Origin: Candidatus Latescibacterota bacterium
GTDB lineage: Bacteria > Latescibacterota > UBA2968 > UBA8231
Assembly: GCA_965223905.1 (NCBI GenBank)
Contig: CBDCXV010000001.1
Location: 1 to 64,000 of the forward strand
Direction: 5' to 3'
DNA: 64,000 nt
The notes under the pieces were generated by a model. It worked only from the letters and a program-made list of their open reading frames with translations. It searched no databases and was not told the origin of the DNA. Position numbers and translations under genes: made by a program. How positions within the stretch are numbered: position 1 is the stretch's first letter; each line of letters begins with the position of its first letter. Shown here one piece after another: positions 156 to 55,599 of this stretch.

Positions 156-716
156 GCAGGACGTCAGAGGGATTTGGGCACGGTCGCTGCCGGCTGCTGG
201 CGTCCCGCCCATTGCCGCGGCGCTTACCCGGGTTGCCTCGGGACCGCTCCTCCTTTGGCGGGCGGGATTTCCGCCCCGAAGAATGACCAGTGAGCAAACC
301 CCTGGAGGCGCTTGCCTCACCCGGCCGAAACTGCTCGTACGGAGCCTGCACCTCCATCTTCGGTAGCGGCGGAACCAGCCCGCCCTGCTTTACGGGGTAG
401 ATTCCTGGAAGCGCCCTACCCCGGCTTTGCCCGGACTCCCCGCATTTCCGCGCACCTGGGCTCTCCCCCGGGTCCCCCGGCGGGATCAGGTTACGGAAGG
501 GCCGGACGGTCGGGCTGCCGGTGCAAGCCGGTCACTCCCGGCAAGCCAAGTTTGCCTCGTCCCCGGGCTCCCAGTGTCCTGTCCCGGAAATGGATTGCAA
601 AAATTCGGCCCACCGAGGCACCCGGCTCGCAAGCCCTGAGCGAGTCGTACCGGGGAACCAGCATGGTGCTGTCAAGAAGCTGAATCCGGCGGCGCTCCCC
701 ATTTCTCCGGCAGGAC

Positions 717-7015: not shown

Positions 7016-7978
7016 ATGCAACTGAGCGCAGGACAACTCGCCCATTTTGACGAGCAGGGGTACCTGATCGCCGAGGACGTCCTCGAGGACGGCGATCTCG
7101 ACCCCGTGATCCGCGACTACGCCGATCACATCGACCGCCGTTCCCGCGACCTGCACGCCGCCGGCAAGCTTTCGAGGACCTTCGAGGAGGAGCCGTTCGA
7201 ACGCCGCCTGGCGCGCATCTGCGAGGAGAACACCGAGATCTACGACGACATCGACATCCCGGCTTTCCGCGGCCGCGGGGTGTTCGAGTTCCTCCGCAAC
7301 GACCACCTGATGGACGTCGTCGAACCGATAGTCGGACCGGAGATCATCTGCAGTCCCATCCAGCATACCCGCGCCAAGCTGCCGCAGTCGTTGGTTCCGG
7401 ACACGGACGACGGCGATGCCGAGGCGGAGAAGCGCAAGGGGATGGTGAGCGGGAACGTCGCCCCATGGCACCAGGACGCCCAGGTGCACCAGGAGGTAGC
7501 CGACTCGACCTTCATCCTCACCGTCTGGATCCCCCTGGTGGACGCCACCCCGGAAAACGGCTGTTTGCAGATCGTCCCGGGGATCCACAGGGAGCGGACG
7601 GTGCTGTGGTGGAAGGGCCCGGGTTGGGGGATCGACGACGAGGACCTCGAGAGCCGCGAGGTCGTGACCCTGCCCATGCGCAAGGGCAGCGTCCTTCTCC
7701 TGCACAAGCTGATCCCCCACCGCTCGACGCCGAACCTCACCGACGGCATCCGCTGGAGCATGGACCTGCGATATCAAAAAACCGGCACCCCGACCGGGCG
7801 CGAGCTCTACCCCCACTTCGTCACCCGCAGCCGCTCGCGCCCCGAAACCAAATACACCGACTACGAAGACTGGTGCCGGCGCTGGATCGAAATCCTCGGC
7901 AAGGTGCCGCTCGGTTCCCACCCGATCAGGGAAACGCCGCTGACGGAACATGCCTCCGTGTCGATAGAAACCCGATGA
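7016..7978 (+). CDS. PhyH family dioxygenase
   Basis: WHQD, ENGCLQIVPGIH and HRSTPN...RWSMDLRY. RBS GAGGAG lies before ATG 7016. Confidence 0.9.
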   Translation: MQLSAGQLAHFDEQGYLIAEDVLEDGDLDPVIRDYADHIDRRSRDLHAAGKLSRTFEEEPFERRLARICEENTEIYDDIDIPAFRGRGVFEFLRNDHLMDVVEPIVGPEIICSPIQHTRAKLPQSLVPDTDDGDAEAEKRKGMVSGNVAPWHQDAQVHQEVADSTFILTVWIPLVDATPENGCLQIVPGIHRERTVLWWKGPGWGIDDEDLESREVVTLPMRKGSVLLLHKLIPHRSTPNLTDGIRWSMDLRYQKTGTPTGRELYPHFVTRSRSRPETKYTDYEDWCRRWIEILGKVPLGSHPIRETPLTEHASVSIETR

Positions 7979-11523: not shown

Positions 11524-12294
11524 ATGACGACCGCAACCGTGACTGATTCCGCGCGGCAGCAGTACGAAGCGGATGGGTACCTCTCCCCCATCGACCTGTT
11601 CGGCGCCGATGAAATCGACGCCTACCGGGAGCAGTTCGACGAGCTGGAAGCCTTCGAGGGCCGGGAGAAGTCCCAGATCGGCCTGCAGGCGCGGCACTTC
11701 GACCAGGAGTTCATCTGGAAGCTGGCCGCCGACCCCCGCGTCCTCGACTGGATGGAGGGGGTCATGGGCGAGGACCTGATGCTGCTGAGCACCCACTTCT
11801 TCTGCAAGTACCCCGACGCGAAGGGGGAGAAGTTCGTCGCCTGGCACCAGGACGTAACCTACTGGGGCCTCGAGCCGGACGAAGCCCACACCGCCTGGAT
11901 CGCCATCGACGACAGCGACGTCGAGAACGGCTGCATGCAGGTGATTCCCGGCTCGCATGCCAAGGGGATCGTCCCGCACGGCAAGGCGGACCGCGACGGC
12001 AACCTCCTCAGCATCAACCAGGAGATCCCCGACGAGTACGTCGACAAGACCAACGCCGTCAATCTCGAGCTCGAAGCGGGCAAGATGTCCATCCACTACG
12101 GCAAGGTGTATCACGCCAGCCATCCCAACACCTCGAACCGGCGCCGCTGCGGCCTCACGGTCCGCTTCATTCCCCCCGAGGCGCGCCAGACCGAGATCAA
12201 CTCGCTGGGTGGCGACTGGAAGCCGATCCTGCTGCGCGGCGAGGACCGCCATCACCACTATCCCGAAACGCCGCCCCCGTTCCCCGTCCCTTAG
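11524..12294 (+). CDS. PhyH family dioxygenase
   Basis: WHQDVTYW, ENGCMQVIPGSH and HASHPNTSNRRR. Confidence 0.9.
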   Translation: MTTATVTDSARQQYEADGYLSPIDLFGADEIDAYREQFDELEAFEGREKSQIGLQARHFDQEFIWKLAADPRVLDWMEGVMGEDLMLLSTHFFCKYPDAKGEKFVAWHQDVTYWGLEPDEAHTAWIAIDDSDVENGCMQVIPGSHAKGIVPHGKADRDGNLLSINQEIPDEYVDKTNAVNLELEAGKMSIHYGKVYHASHPNTSNRRRCGLTVRFIPPEARQTEINSLGGDWKPILLRGEDRHHHYPETPPPFPVP

Positions 12295-51135: not shown

Positions 51136-51375
51136 ATGAAATCTCTCACAATACACATGGACGAGGCCTTGGACCGTCGCGTTCGAGAAAAGGCAGCGAG
51201 TGAAGGAGTCAGCCTGAACCGGACCGTGACTCGCGTGCTGCGGGAGGCGTTGGGACTCAATCCCAAGAGCAACCGGGCCCAATTCGAAGACCATATCGGC
51301 GTCTGGAGCGAGGAGGAAAAACGCGAGTTCGACGCGCTGACCAGACGGGATGTCGACCCACGGGACTGGCAATGA
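51136..51375 (+). CDS. vapB: Antitoxin (RHH/FitA-like)
   Basis: LTIHMDE...REKAASEGVSLN and G.WSEEE..EF. ATGA overlap with the PIN gene. Confidence 0.8.
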   Translation: MKSLTIHMDEALDRRVREKAASEGVSLNRTVTRVLREALGLNPKSNRAQFEDHIGVWSEEEKREFDALTRRDVDPRDWQ

Positions 51376-51761
51376 AGGTCCTGCTCGACACCAACGCGTT
51401 GAGTGCCCTGTGGCACGGCGACGAGCGCATACTCGAAGCCCTCGATCAGGCCGAGCAGGTTCTCCTGTCCGTTATCGTTTTGGGTGAACTGCACGCCGGC
51501 TTCAGGGGCAGCAGCCGGCTGGTTGAAAACCGGGCCCGCCTGAACGACTTCCTTGGCAAGCCTCTTGTCGAGACCCTCGAGGTATCCGCAGAGACGTCCG
51601 AAGTCTATGGCCAGATCAAAGATTCTTTGCGCAAGGCAGGTAATCCGATTCCCATCAACGACGTTTGGCTGTCCGCCCAAGCGATAGAGATCGGGGCTGT
51701 TCTGGTTACCTTCGACGAACACTTTCGCCATGTTGCAGGTCTGCGGCGATGGGAGTTCTGA
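51372..51761 (+). CDS. vapC: PIN-domain toxin
   Basis: LLDTNA, IVLGEL, PIPINDVW and TFDEHF. Confidence 0.92.
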   Translation: MKVLLDTNALSALWHGDERILEALDQAEQVLLSVIVLGELHAGFRGSSRLVENRARLNDFLGKPLVETLEVSAETSEVYGQIKDSLRKAGNPIPINDVWLSAQAIEIGAVLVTFDEHFRHVAGLRRWEF

Positions 51762-53056: not shown

Positions 53057-53821
53057 CTAGCCCGCCGGCCGTACTCGTGACCGCTGCTCCTCGGTCATGT
53101 CGTCCGCCACTTCGGGGCCGTGGGTTCCGAAGCTCATGAAGCCCGGGGTGTATCGATAGATCAGAGCGCGGCGCTGATGTTCGCCGTTCCACTTCAGGGT
53201 GCCGTGGGTGCAGGCCTCGACGAAGATCACGGCATCGCCCGCCCGGACGTGAATCTCCTTGACCAGCTCCTGGTGTGCTTCGTAGAACTGCAGCGCCTGC
53301 GGCAGGGGGTAATTCGACTTGTGGCCGCCGGGGACGATCGCCAGGCCCCCGTCGCCGGGTCCCTCGTCAGACAGCATGAACTCCACGACGGTCATGCCGC
53401 AGTAGATCTTGCCGTGTTTCCACATGTAGGTCTGGGTGAAGTCGGGCCGCTCAACGCCGCCGCCGTGCAGGTAGTGGCCGGCACATCCGGTCTCAATTGT
53501 CACCAGGTCGGGCCCGACGTTGATGCGCCAGCCGCTTCCGAGGATTTCGGTCAGGTAGGAACTGACGCGCGGGTGCACGAGCAGTTCGCGGAAGGGTTCG
53601 CACCAGGGGGCGTCCCAGGTGAGCATGCCGGACATCCAATGCTGCCGAACCTCGCTCGCCAGCACCTGCGAGTCGCCTTCCAACCGCCGTTCGTGGGGCT
53701 CGAGCTGATCGGCGTGATGATCTATGGCCCGGTTGCACCGCGCCACCTGGTCCGGCGACATCACTTCCGGAAGCACGAGGTAACCGTTCAGGTCGAAGAC
53801 GTACTTCGCGTCGTCGTTCAC
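53057..53821 (-). CDS. PhyH-like dioxygenase
   Basis: YVFDLNGYLVL, LHGG, GGLAIVPGGHK and THGT..W....RR. GTG start overlaps the upstream TGA (alternative ATG at 53833). Confidence 0.85.
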   Translation of the reverse strand: MNDDAKYVFDLNGYLVLPEVMSPDQVARCNRAIDHHADQLEPHERRLEGDSQVLASEVRQHWMSGMLTWDAPWCEPFRELLVHPRVSSYLTEILGSGWRINVGPDLVTIETGCAGHYLHGGGVERPDFTQTYMWKHGKIYCGMTVVEFMLSDEGPGDGGLAIVPGGHKSNYPLPQALQFYEAHQELVKEIHVRAGDAVIFVEACTHGTLKWNGEHQRRALIYRYTPGFMSFGTHGPEVADDMTEEQRSRVRPAG

Positions 53822-54507
53822 TGTCCGCTCCATTCAACTTCGCGCCTTTTTTCCAACCGGCTCGAGACTTCCTTTTCCACATCCTCGTGATCTATCTTGC
53901 CCACCCACTGAGCTACGATCTGACCGTCCCGGTCGAGAAGAAACATTGCAGGAATCGCTTTCACCTTGAACTGATGCCAGGCGGGCGTCTGTTTCGCGTC
54001 AACGAAGATGGGGTATGTAATGTCCATTTTTTCCACCATCTTCTTGATCTTCCTGCCCCGGTCCTTGTCTTCATCTATGGACACACCCAGAACTTCAACC
54101 CCCTTGTCGGAAAAAGCGCTGTAGAGTTGTTGCAACCGGGGCATGGTCTCGAGACAAGGTTTGCACCAGGTCGCCCAGAAATCCACGAGCACGATTTTGC
54201 CGTTCAAATCTCCCAACGCCTTGTCCCCGCCCTCCAGCGTTTCCACGACGAAGGCTGGTGCGGGTCGAGGAAATACCGGCGGTAAATAGGCCGCGGGATC
54301 CAAGTCAAATTCCATTTTACAATCTTCCGAACAAAAGTAGTACATCTTGCCATCATGTTCCGAATGGCCCTTGACCTTTTCCAACTCCGTCTCCCCGGCC
54401 TTCAATGCACAGACACTGCAAAGAGCCTTGTCGGGAATCTGAGCTTCAGCTGCAAGCGAAACCGAACTTGCCAAAACGATCAGAAATGAAAAATTGCAAA
54501 AACGCAT
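53818..54507 (-). CDS. Secreted YHS/TRASH-domain + TlpA-type thiol-disulfide oxidoreductase
   Basis: Signal peptide, CSVC...YYFCSEDCKMEFDLDPAAY (YHS), then DFWATWCKPC...VKAIP (TlpA). RBS GGAGGA. Confidence 0.9.
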   Translation of the reverse strand: MRFCNFSFLIVLASSVSLAAEAQIPDKALCSVCALKAGETELEKVKGHSEHDGKMYYFCSEDCKMEFDLDPAAYLPPVFPRPAPAFVVETLEGGDKALGDLNGKIVLVDFWATWCKPCLETMPRLQQLYSAFSDKGVEVLGVSIDEDKDRGRKIKKMVEKMDITYPIFVDAKQTPAWHQFKVKAIPAMFLLDRDGQIVAQWVGKIDHEDVEKEVSSRLEKRREVEWSGQ

Positions 54508-54519
54508 TGGTCCTCCACA

Positions 54520-55185
54520 CTAGAATCCAAGAGAAAGCGAAACACCGATGGTTTCAAGCCACACATACATCAAACTGACGCCGTATTTTGCGGCGAAAAA
54601 ATTCAGCATCACATGCCCCCGGTCGCCATCGTACATCGGTCGAAATGAAAACCCCTTCCCCAACTCGACCCCCACGCCAAAGGGAACATTTATGCCCCCA
54701 TCCCATTCGGAGTAATTCAAACTGCCGTAAAAAGAAGTGCGCAGCCGGGGTATGTATTTACTTACAGTTGCGAAGTAAGACTGCTCGCCCGCCGGCGAAC
54801 CAATTCGATCCGAGCTCGTGCCCAGAAAGAGCGCCGGACGCGTCTCGGTTTCGGTTAACAGAAACAGCGTAAAAAGAGGTCCTGCCTCTCCTGCTTTTGG
54901 ATTCAGCTCAACCCCGACTTGCAGGCGATGATGCAGGCTGTAATTGGCCGTAAACCGCCACTGCGGACGGTCCATCGACGTATCTACATACCGCCCCGAA
55001 AATGCATATTTCGTATGAATGCCACTCCCCCGGAGCGGTGCGCCTTCGCCAGGTCAGCCCACTCAGGTAGGCGTCATCGAAAACGTCGGCCGTTCACTCC
55101 GCGTAGAATCCGTTTGCGTTTCCTGGGCAAAAACAGGTGAGGTGCCCAGGTATATGGTCAAAAGAAAAAGAGGAAAGTTCATCAT
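54520..55185 (-). CDS. Candidate UxxU di-selenoprotein, outer-membrane beta-barrel-like (221 aa with read-through of two TGA)
   Basis: One frame: signal peptide MMNFPLFLLTIYLGTSPVFA, TGA at 55063-55065 and 55054-55056 (U41-V-G-U44-P), then open into ORF 54520..54975, which ends IGVSLSLGF. Confidence 0.7.
55022..55038 (-). promoter_or_regulatory. Putative bacterial SECIS hairpin
   Basis: mRNA CCGCUCC-GGG-GGAGUGG. The loop starts 22 nt after the second UGA and 31 nt after the first. Confidence 0.5.
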
Positions 55186-55599
55186 CGTGTTCCGTCTGCA
55201 TAGAATGAAGGGTCTATGCATACAAAAAACGTCTCCCGACCCATCACCGCAAACCCTGTGCAACGACCCGCACCTTGCGCGCCCGGCTGCGATCCCGGCC
55301 ACTTCGCCTTCAGATGAATGGGTGCAACGCGGAAAATTGCAACGGCGGTCGGAATTTACCTGGCCAATGCCTCCCGACCGCGATGGAGAGCGCCAAACCC
55401 AGGGCTTTCTGGCTTCCACCCACCGCGCCGGAACCGGTGGACCAGCCCGGCTTCCAGAAGGTACATTCGCACTACCGGGGCAACGAGATGCCGGCCCGAT
55501 TACGGAGTGGATGACTTCGTCGAGAGCTGAGTGATCCGGCGCCTCGCAACCCAACGCAGCGAACATCCCCCCTGCATCGGTAATGCAAAGGAGTGGACT

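Follow-up and report, generated by a model that had tools for sequence, protein, structure and literature searches.

A predicted outer-membrane barrel with a Sec-x-x-Sec arm and its YHS-TlpA neighbour: a candidate two-gene envelope cassette in Latescibacterota and other bacteria

What is encoded by a small gene that two in-frame TGA codons would seem to break, and does its product work with that of the gene behind it? The question is raised by a 64,000-nucleotide (nt) stretch of DNA from Candidatus Latescibacterota bacterium (GenBank assembly GCA_965223905.1, contig CBDCXV010000001.1, positions 1 to 64,000; hereafter the window). Our reading of the sequence places three genes in a row on its minus strand: a gene for a predicted outer-membrane barrel with the motif UxxU (U, selenocysteine, Sec), a gene for a secreted protein that joins a YHS/TRASH module to a TlpA-like thioredoxin domain (YHS-TlpA), and a gene of the PhyH family. 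The barrel stop codon and the YHS-TlpA ATG (54507) are separated by exactly 12 nt, TGTGGAGGACCA, containing GGAGGA, and a GGAGG-type spacer is kept in all nine aligned relatives in which the spacer was read. A first-pass annotation had described the UxxU gene, this spacer and a secreted protein with CxxC...FCSxxC and WCKPC, and all of these are present as described. We propose, as an evenly balanced reading, that the first two genes form an envelope cassette in which the Sec-x-x-Sec arm of the barrel and the YHS-TlpA protein would act as a metal relay.

The barrel gene begins with ATG-ATG. With both TGA codons read as Sec, its product starts with MMNFPLFLLTIYLGTSPVFA, a signal peptide ending VFA before QE, and continues with QETQTDSTRSERPTFSMTPT-U-VG-U-PGEGAPLRGSG and approximately 165 further residues to ...SLSLGF, so that the motif in the window is P-T-U-V-G-U-P-G. 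A start codon 39-43 codons before the first U, together with a hydrophobic leader, is kept in all ten aligned relatives. The gene was found in 11 of 61 related genomes, and the ten full-length copies, at 56-99% identity, all carry two in-frame TGA codons; the eleventh is interrupted by a contig end. Among 168 genomes of the phylum, 34 have a match, comprising 27 intact genes with exactly two TGA codons each, one gene cut by a contig end (G006), two with an extra stop and four fragments. A scan across bacteria, with one genome per species, returned 164 relatives, 80 of which were analysed. The site is covered in 79 of these 80 loci, and every one of the 79 reads PTU-x-[G/A]-U-PGEGAPLRGSG. The loci fall under about ten phylum labels, taken from the record titles: Latescibacterota (that of the window), Gemmatimonadota, Planctomycetota, Calditrichia, Poribacteria, Acidobacteriota/Thermoanaerobaculia, Eisenbacteria, Krumholzibacteriia, Fibrobacteraceae and Deltaproteobacteria.

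In these genomes UGA otherwise acts as a normal stop: TGA terminates the YHS-TlpA gene of the window, as well as the barrel gene in two relatives, L021 and L026. The window genome encodes machinery for Sec insertion, with matches to SelA (468.3 bits), tRNA-Sec (72.6 bits) and the SelB wing domain (61.3 bits). Of the 28 genomes of the phylum whose barrel gene is unbroken (the 27 intact copies and G006), 27 also have SelA; it occurs in 131 of all 168 and is too general in the class to discriminate. A list of open reading frames (ORFs) made under translation table 11 holds, at this gene, only a 151-amino-acid (aa) ORF from an internal ATG (54520-54975). Likewise, a profile search of a library of 1.84 billion proteins found 207 representatives, 127 of them at E <= 1e-10, most of which begin just past the motif, as expected where gene callers stop at TGA. 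Two library entries differ: in P0084 both Sec positions read W (PTWSGWPGEGAPLRGSG), which would suit a gene call under table 4 (TGA = Trp), and P0011 reads CVGW at the pair.

A SECIS-like hairpin (SECIS, selenocysteine insertion sequence) was identified downstream of the two codons, its apical loop lying 22 nt past the second TGA and 31 nt past the first. The bacterial SECIS (bSECIS) model, as given in the available text of PMC13188914, has a stem of 4-16 base pairs (bp), a loop of 3-9 nt with G in the first two loop positions, and a spacing of 16-37 nt; the stem, the loop and both spacings of the present hairpin fall within it. In an alignment of 79 sequences, 99.1% of the hairpin cells are paired, as compared with 29-70% for hairpins slid along the alignment as controls. 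Only two of the pairs are made of synonymous third positions, and both covary: pair 39-51 (Pro3-Ser3) occurs as GC in 50 sequences, GU in 16, AU in 11 and otherwise in 2, and pair 42-48 (Leu3-Gly3) as CG in 56, UA in 21, UG in 1 and otherwise in 1. Double changes were counted in 32 cells versus 10.1 +/- 2.5 in shuffles (0 of 500 reached 32), figures that overstate independence since the sequences are related.

Three observations weigh against the hairpin. Most UA cases of pair 42-48 come from Poribacteria, although the state is also seen in Latescibacterota; folding 116 nt around the site as a single sequence gives no gain in stability over shuffles (z -0.07); and the hairpin codons, with a synonymous diversity of 0.34, lie below the gene mean of 0.47, which is not decisive, as the lowest windows of the gene reach 0.27-0.30. 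The minimum-energy structure of the 116-nt fold was a longer hairpin, which was dropped as non-conserved in favour of the conserved 7-bp one. Taken together, the data fit a single shared SECIS hairpin, placed within the PGEGAPLRGSG codons, that would serve both UGA codons. In a sister subfamily with the motif PTCAGCAGEAR, in which C-x-x-C aligns with U-x-x-U (hereafter Cys-type, as opposed to Sec-type), the peptide after the pair is not PGEGAPLRGSG, which fits a peptide frozen by the RNA element. These results suggest that the barrel gene almost certainly encodes a selenoprotein.

Metatranscriptome contigs from two runs of one sponge-metagenome study match the 5' end of the gene, one identically over 55021-55191 and a second over 54987-55179 with one 1-nt gap, both TGA codons and the hairpin being included. 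Since such libraries may contain DNA and the contigs carry no expression level, they are a weak hint of expression; the rest of the operon has almost no RNA coverage and is uninformative. In DNA runs, several variant contigs cover the barrel region, that is, several related strains are present.

The second protein of the pair has a signal peptide, as read from the sequence, and two sets of cysteines, C30-x2-C33 ... F-C59-S-x2-C63 and W-C115-K-P-C118. The first set lies in a Pfam YHS domain (PF04945; 39.2 bits versus a gathering cut-off of 30.3). The second lies in a domain matched above cut-off by AhpC-TSA (9.4e-26, 90.6 bits), Thioredoxin_8 (1e-20, 74.3 bits) and Redoxin (3.2e-20, 72.9 bits). 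The four YHS cysteines are kept in 13 of 14 aligned Sec-type partners, the remaining row having N at the third, and FWATWCxxC is invariant in all 19 aligned partners. In NCBIfam, the ResA subfamily scores 112.1 bits against a cut-off of 170 and the TlpA equivalog 69.5 against 230, both below. By these scores, the partner is TlpA-like, and is neither TlpA itself nor a ResA ortholog.

The first-pass annotation had named co-occurrence of the two genes in other genomes as the test of its pairing, and the counts bear it out. In 55 of the 80 loci from other genomes, the gene immediately after the barrel is YHS-TlpA, under about nine phylum labels and with partner identities of 43-92%. Among the other 25 loci, one has it at 1.8 kb with one inserted gene between, one holds a decayed remnant, and three reach a contig end too soon. 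When the phylum was searched with YHS-TlpA, full-length hits scored more than 220 bits, and generic hits to the thioredoxin domain, which begin near residue 80, reached no more than 103 bits. A full-length YHS-TlpA was thus found in 29 of the 168 genomes, all 29 of which also have the barrel (27 intact, 1 cut by a contig end and 1 with a premature TAA), and no intact full-length ortholog was found in the other 139. Joint decay was seen as well: G155 (L092) has a truncated barrel with TAG and a TlpA remnant, a deletion in G134 (C36:14297-14582) joins barrel residues 1-31 to TlpA residues 150-221, and both genes of G148 (C1:813683-814417) are in pieces. G152 (C1:4430447-4431991) has YHS-TlpA in two pieces and no barrel. 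The decaying copies, in G157, G155, G134, G148 and G152, all belong to one genus.

The Cys-type relatives provide a second line of evidence. In Cys-type proteins of 389-418 aa from the protein library, PTCAGC and the barrel are preceded by two or three YHS/TRASH domains (Pfam YHS 2e-12 to 5e-18), and ten metagenome loci were found with a Cys-type profile. Five of the ten encode a fusion of two YHS domains, PTCxGC and barrel, followed at once by a TlpA-like thioredoxin of 159-161 aa (FWATWCxxC; Pfam Redoxin/AhpC-TSA). Four have a separate gene with two YHS domains beside the barrel: in one near-identical pair of loci it follows the barrel, and in another the order is a 41-Cys secreted ORF, the YHS gene and the barrel. 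The tenth has a Cys-rich ORF upstream. Hence, the modules occur as barrel + [YHS-TlpA], [YHS-YHS-barrel] + TlpA, and barrel + [YHS-YHS], and this recurrence of the same three modules in three architectures is a far stronger argument for a single functional unit than adjacency by itself. These results suggest that functional coupling of the barrel with YHS and TlpA is highly probable.

Two sets of data count against the coupling. Twenty of the 80 loci have no YHS-TlpA within at least 700 nt, 16 of them in Poribacteria, and whole-genome searches of five Poribacteria genomes found no YHS-TlpA ortholog anywhere; therefore, the barrel is not strictly dependent on YHS-TlpA. In addition, the barrel of G157 (L064) has a premature TAA in its leader and an altered PLRESS, and its TlpA looks intact. 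Clustering of all ORFs in 90 loci revealed no third gene common across phyla; the other clusters were rejected as antisense artefacts or as synteny of a Poribacteria clade (PhyH-like, GNAT and oxidoreductase ORFs).

The Cys-type loci contain further features of note. A secreted 157-aa ORF with 41 cysteines in CCKGG / CKC repeats lies two genes upstream of the barrel in L143 (685-1158) and L144 (460-933), and more Cys-rich secreted ORFs precede the barrel in L139, L146 and L148; no Pfam family matches any of these five upstream ORFs. Many Cys-type barrels have an extra His/Asp-rich loop (GGGEHHGHKV, SGSDSRTHPV) past the second strand, which is absent from the Sec-type.

The fold of the barrel protein was modelled with AlphaFold2 from a ten-row alignment. 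The model has twelve strands over residues 60-220 (predicted local distance difference test, pLDDT, 63; predicted template modelling score, pTM, 0.62), preceded by an N-terminal arm of approximately 35 residues that bears U41-x-x-U44. The motifs R77, E93, SSDRIG(S/T)P, NYSEWD, YDGDRxH and a C-terminal F are kept across the family. Foldseek matched designed 10- and 12-stranded barrels, FapF and porins at E ~1e-4, and VIA-align gave Z scores of 14.5 for FapF, 14.2 for the COG4313 channel, 13.6 for KdgM, 13.3-13.4 for autotransporter barrels, 12.1 for LpxR and 9.5 for PcoB. Several of the best fold matches carry an N-terminal piece in or at the pore. A signal peptide, an all-beta barrel and a C-terminal aromatic residue (...SLGF) are likewise present, as predicted features of an outer-membrane barrel. 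No Pfam or NCBIfam family matches the barrel of any member, Sec-type or Cys-type, and the window protein, read with C at both sites, matches none at E <= 0.1. From the model and the alignments, the protein is predicted to be a 12-stranded outer-membrane beta-barrel. Weighing against this prediction, the model is middling by its pLDDT, and arm residues 14-55, with pLDDT < 50, are disordered in it.

On these grounds, the following mechanism can be outlined. The arm would hang at the periplasmic mouth of its own barrel, or inside it. The TlpA domain would hold the Se-Se pair (S-S in the Cys forms) in the reduced state, and the YHS module would pass a soft metal to or from the reduced pair, with Cu(I) as the first guess and Hg, Ag or Cd as alternatives; the barrel would let the metal cross the outer membrane. 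We infer direct contact, the metal and the direction of transport. The first-pass annotation had suggested a redox- or metal-gated module; that suggestion is supported in part, by the genetic coupling. A metal was considered because of the description of the YHS/TRASH family, the Cys-rich neighbouring ORFs and the His-rich loop in some Cys-type barrels, the YHS/TRASH Pfam hits being a metal hint in both Sec-type and Cys-type systems. Several points tell against a metal. The ORF clustering of the 90 loci showed no metal gene of known specificity in the conserved neighbourhood, Poribacteria manage without YHS-TlpA, YHS four-Cys modules can serve as structural zinc sites, and a pure redox role accounts for the TlpA link equally well. 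A complex prediction for the arm and barrel of Cys-type L146 (residues 196-411) with its TlpA-like neighbour scored 0.00 twice, which is evidence neither way. We give the metal relay an even chance at most. A more specific form of it is tentative, and we hold it to be somewhat improbable: a periplasmic metallochaperone dedicated to the task, the YHS module, would hand a soft metal (Cu(I), or Hg/Ag/Cd) to a diselenolate "fishing arm", which would carry the ion through its own barrel and be re-reduced by the TlpA domain fused to the chaperone. If true, it would be the first case of a metal conduit in the bacterial outer membrane that depends on selenocysteine. It would also be widespread, occurring in Latescibacterota, Acidobacteriota, Eisenbacteria, Calditrichia and sponge symbionts, and in its Cys-only version chaperone and barrel would form a single fused protein.

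The system can be compared with several known ones. In Bradyrhizobium, TlpA works with ScoI and CoxB as a periplasmic reductant that readies Cys pairs for copper loading. Here too, a secreted WCxPC thioredoxin is genetically tied to a protein whose Cys/Sec pair would need reduction to bind a metal, and a metal-binding module is included. In contrast to Bradyrhizobium, the target would be the arm of an outer-membrane barrel with Sec-x-x-Sec, rather than an inner-membrane Sco or a cytochrome oxidase subunit, and the reductase, well below the cut-off of the TlpA equivalog, bears its own YHS/TRASH module. The barrel may also be compared with PcoB/CopB (PDB 7pge), a small outer-membrane barrel that is thought to pass copper and that has a disordered metal-binding N-terminal arm. 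The fit of PcoB to the AlphaFold2 model (Z 9.5, root-mean-square deviation 4.6, 159 residues aligned) is at the level of any generic barrel, 23 other entries scoring higher, and no sequence relation was found, as no Pfam family matches the present barrel. The arm of PcoB is rich in Met and His, rather than in Sec or Cys, and PcoB has no TlpA or YHS partner, unlike the barrel described here.

FapF (5o65), the COG4313 channel (4rl8), NalP and AIDA-I likewise have 12 strands and an N-terminal piece before the barrel, with Z of 14.5, 14.2, 13.3 and 13.4, respectively, over 158-177 residues. This likeness of fold says nothing about function. Identities are 5-15%, there are no common motifs, and the N-terminal pieces of FapF, the COG4313 channel and the autotransporters are helices or passengers without redox pairs. 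Two selenocysteines with CxxC-like spacing are shared with the known UxxU families (NF041115, FmdB TIGR02605 and Prx-like), for the first of which a metal role has been proposed, whereas those families are soluble folds, none of them in the outer membrane, and none of their NCBIfam models matches the barrel. Selenocysteine in an outer-membrane beta-barrel is shared with the two catalogued outer-membrane selenoproteins, the GSU2204/MtrB-PioB family barrel (NF041027) and the TonB-dependent receptor of FCYXU type (NF049945), as listed in the available text of PMC13188914. Those proteins are much larger, with one Sec in other contexts and without YHS-TlpA, and neither model matches the present barrel.

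As far as the available text of the two reviews of bacterial selenoproteomes goes (PMC9312934, 2022; PMC13188914, 2026), UxxU is listed in soluble families only, two outer-membrane selenoproteins are listed, and nothing resembling the UxxU barrel appears. A full-text literature search, whose scope did not extend to supplements and subscription journals, found no paper on such a barrel or on the YHS-TlpA pair. The system is closest in working to TlpA copper loading, in fold only to PcoB-type barrels and in motif only to NF041115, and is a member of none. What emerges is a widespread family of selenoproteins, so far uncatalogued, within an envelope system of three modules that has a Cys-only counterpart in nature. 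It adds to the catalogue a small outer-membrane barrel family with two Sec per SECIS, in phyla known mostly from metagenomes and with many sponge symbionts among its hosts. It also exposes a blind spot of annotation: two UGA codons leave the databases with nothing but N-terminally cut fragments of a family that spans about ten phylum labels. Such a compact system opens a way to study how soft metals, or redox equivalents, cross the outer membrane or act at it, and why selenium rather than sulfur serves there, a comparison for which the natural Cys-type version is a built-in control.

Four other explanations were weighed. The first is a pure redox module without metal cargo, in which Sec-x-x-Sec would scavenge peroxide or another oxidant, or would carry out thiol-diselenide exchange at the outer membrane; TlpA would recycle it with electrons from the inner membrane, and YHS would be a structural zinc knuckle or a docking piece. 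The best families of the partner (AhpC-TSA/Redoxin/ResA-like) point this way, as do the Poribacteria barrel loci without YHS, including the five genomes searched whole. According to the available text of PMC13188914 and PMC9312934, the majority of the bacterial selenoproteins catalogued so far are redox enzymes, and some Prx-like and Trx-like families contain UxxU/UxxC motifs. What makes this module unlikely in our view is the retention of YHS through the three architectures, in two or three copies where it is fused to the barrel, which would be hard to explain for a mere docking piece. The Cys-rich secreted ORFs and His-rich loops of the Cys-type loci also speak for the metal relay, and a peroxidase of the soluble type has no need of a barrel.

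The second explanation is a channel or enzyme for chalcogens (selenide, elemental selenium, polysulfide or thiosulfate), the cargo being held as a Se-Se-Se or Se-S adduct at the mouth of the barrel and released by TlpA. The invariant polar residues R77, E93, D126-R127, D186 and H191 point to a specific site within or on the barrel, and its 12-stranded relatives include the substrate-specific channels KdgM, NanC, Tsx and COG4313. The ORF clustering of the 90 loci, however, revealed no conserved gene of sulfur or selenium metabolism nearby, the Pfam descriptions tie YHS/TRASH to metals, and the data carry no specific pointer to chalcogens, so that we regard this explanation as improbable.

The third explanation is that the two genes are adjacent merely through inherited synteny, or because they hitch-hike together on a mobile cassette, and that their products act separately. 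The base composition bears on this. The GC content is 0.529 in the barrel gene and 0.514 in the YHS-TlpA gene, as compared with 0.641 in the window, 0.648 in PhyH and 0.61-0.63 in the flanks, in line with the lower GC that the first-pass annotation had noted for both genes. Among 30 long loci, GC is below that of the flanks for the barrel gene in 27 and for the TlpA gene in 25. In Latescibacterota the difference amounts to 8-15 points; in the other loci it is small. Protein identities of the cassette are discordant with the family labels (87% to G052 of another family, f4, and 69% to G015 of the same family, f1), and the genes flanking the cassette differ among relatives. The cassette probably moves as a block, because its GC is foreign in Latescibacterota (0.51-0.53 versus 0.64) and its identities ignore the family labels. 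Such movement, together with the Poribacteria loci without a partner, speaks for hitch-hiking, but the adjacency persists across about nine phylum labels at partner identities down to 43%, both genes are lost or decay jointly, and the re-fusion of the modules in another order in the Cys-type relatives is not predicted by it. Hitch-hiking is therefore very improbable, and functional coupling is retained.

The last, that the gene is broken or that the TGA codons end a short leader ORF and the barrel starts at the ATG of codon 71, would suit the 151-aa ORF of the table-11 lists and the short forms that make up most database entries, but is extremely improbable given that the short form has neither signal peptide nor first strand, that the frame, the leader and both TGA codons are kept in 79 of 79 loci, that the codon-71 ATG is not kept (relatives have L, R or K), that the Cys-type homologs are full length, and that a covarying hairpin and Sec machinery are present.

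The coordinates of the features discussed are listed in Table 1.

Table 1. Positions of the barrel, YHS-TlpA and PhyH genes and their parts in the window, with one feature of the Cys-type alignment.
Feature	Position	Strand	Basis or detail
Putative selenoprotein barrel gene	54520..55185	-	221 codons + stop TAG (54522-54520)
Signal peptide of the barrel protein, residues 1-20, MMNFPLFLLTIYLGTSPVFA	55126..55185	-	Sequence reading; likely cut before Q21
First in-frame TGA, codon 41, read as selenocysteine	55063..55065	-	Kept 79/79; aligns with Cys of the PTCAGC subfamily
Second in-frame TGA, codon 44, read as selenocysteine	55054..55056	-	Same basis as codon 41
SECIS-like hairpin CCGCUCC-GGG-GGAGUGG, 7 bp, loop G[G/U]G	55022..55038	-	RNAalifold
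Barrel domain, residues ~57-221, 12 predicted strands	54523..55017	-	AlphaFold2 model, alignments
GGAGGA ribosome-binding site in spacer	54511..54516	-	Sequence reading
Secreted YHS/TRASH + TlpA-like thiol:disulfide oxidoreductase, 229 aa	53818..54507	-	Pfam, NCBIfam, orthologs adjoining the barrel
YHS/TRASH module, residues 26-77, C30, C33, C59, C63	54277..54432	-	Pfam YHS 39.2 bits
Thioredoxin-fold domain, residues 82-212, DFWATW-C115-K-P-C118	53872..54264	-	Pfam AhpC-TSA/Redoxin/Thioredoxin_8
PhyH-family 2-oxoglutarate/Fe(II) dioxygenase, neighbour outside the system	53057..53833	-	Pfam PF05721 3.8e-11
His/Asp-rich loop of Cys-type barrels	alignment columns ~280-305		P0040, P0035, P0025, P0033, P0058, P0056, P0075

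Behind the YHS-TlpA gene, its stop TGA (53820-53818) overlaps a GTG of the PhyH frame (53821-53819) as GTGA, an overlap that the first-pass annotation had pointed out, with the suspicion that the link to PhyH was accidental. The longest PhyH ORF starts at ATG 53833, 12 nt upstream of the overlapping GTG, and PhyH may be translationally coupled in the genus of the window. An ortholog of this PhyH follows TlpA only in that genus (G000 and G002); elsewhere, the gene after TlpA is, by ORF reading, a peptidase-like, ankyrin-like or other ORF. The window genome holds at least 151 PhyH matches above the Pfam cut-off in 7.9 Mb, a count for which 150 of 255 candidates were scored; examples are the window gene itself and C1:6050-6598, 7046-7753 and 11563-12147. 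PhyH is a chance neighbour outside the system, because its GC matches that of the host while that of the cassette does not, and because the linkage is limited to one genus. The suspicion of an accidental link was thus well placed.

PhyH-like ORFs also lie near the barrel, at other positions that are not homologous, in L098 (1268-2014, minus strand), L080 (1338-2111, minus strand), L023/L024 (1-374) and L021 (2944-3666), and in Poribacteria a PhyH-like ORF stands upstream of the barrel in a conserved block with GNAT and Gfo/Idh/MocA-like ORFs. Such neighbours are probably accounted for by the abundance of PhyH.

Two thioredoxin-domain matches, in G098 (C1:788384-788815) and G170 (C1:1215348-1215707), lie in open frames of 1040 and 646 aa, respectively, with one in-frame TGA each, and may be other selenoproteins. 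Elsewhere in the window, a small ORF (51136-51375, plus strand) and a 129-aa ORF (51372-51761, plus strand) overlap by 4 nt and, by reading of their translations, resemble an antitoxin/PIN-toxin pair.

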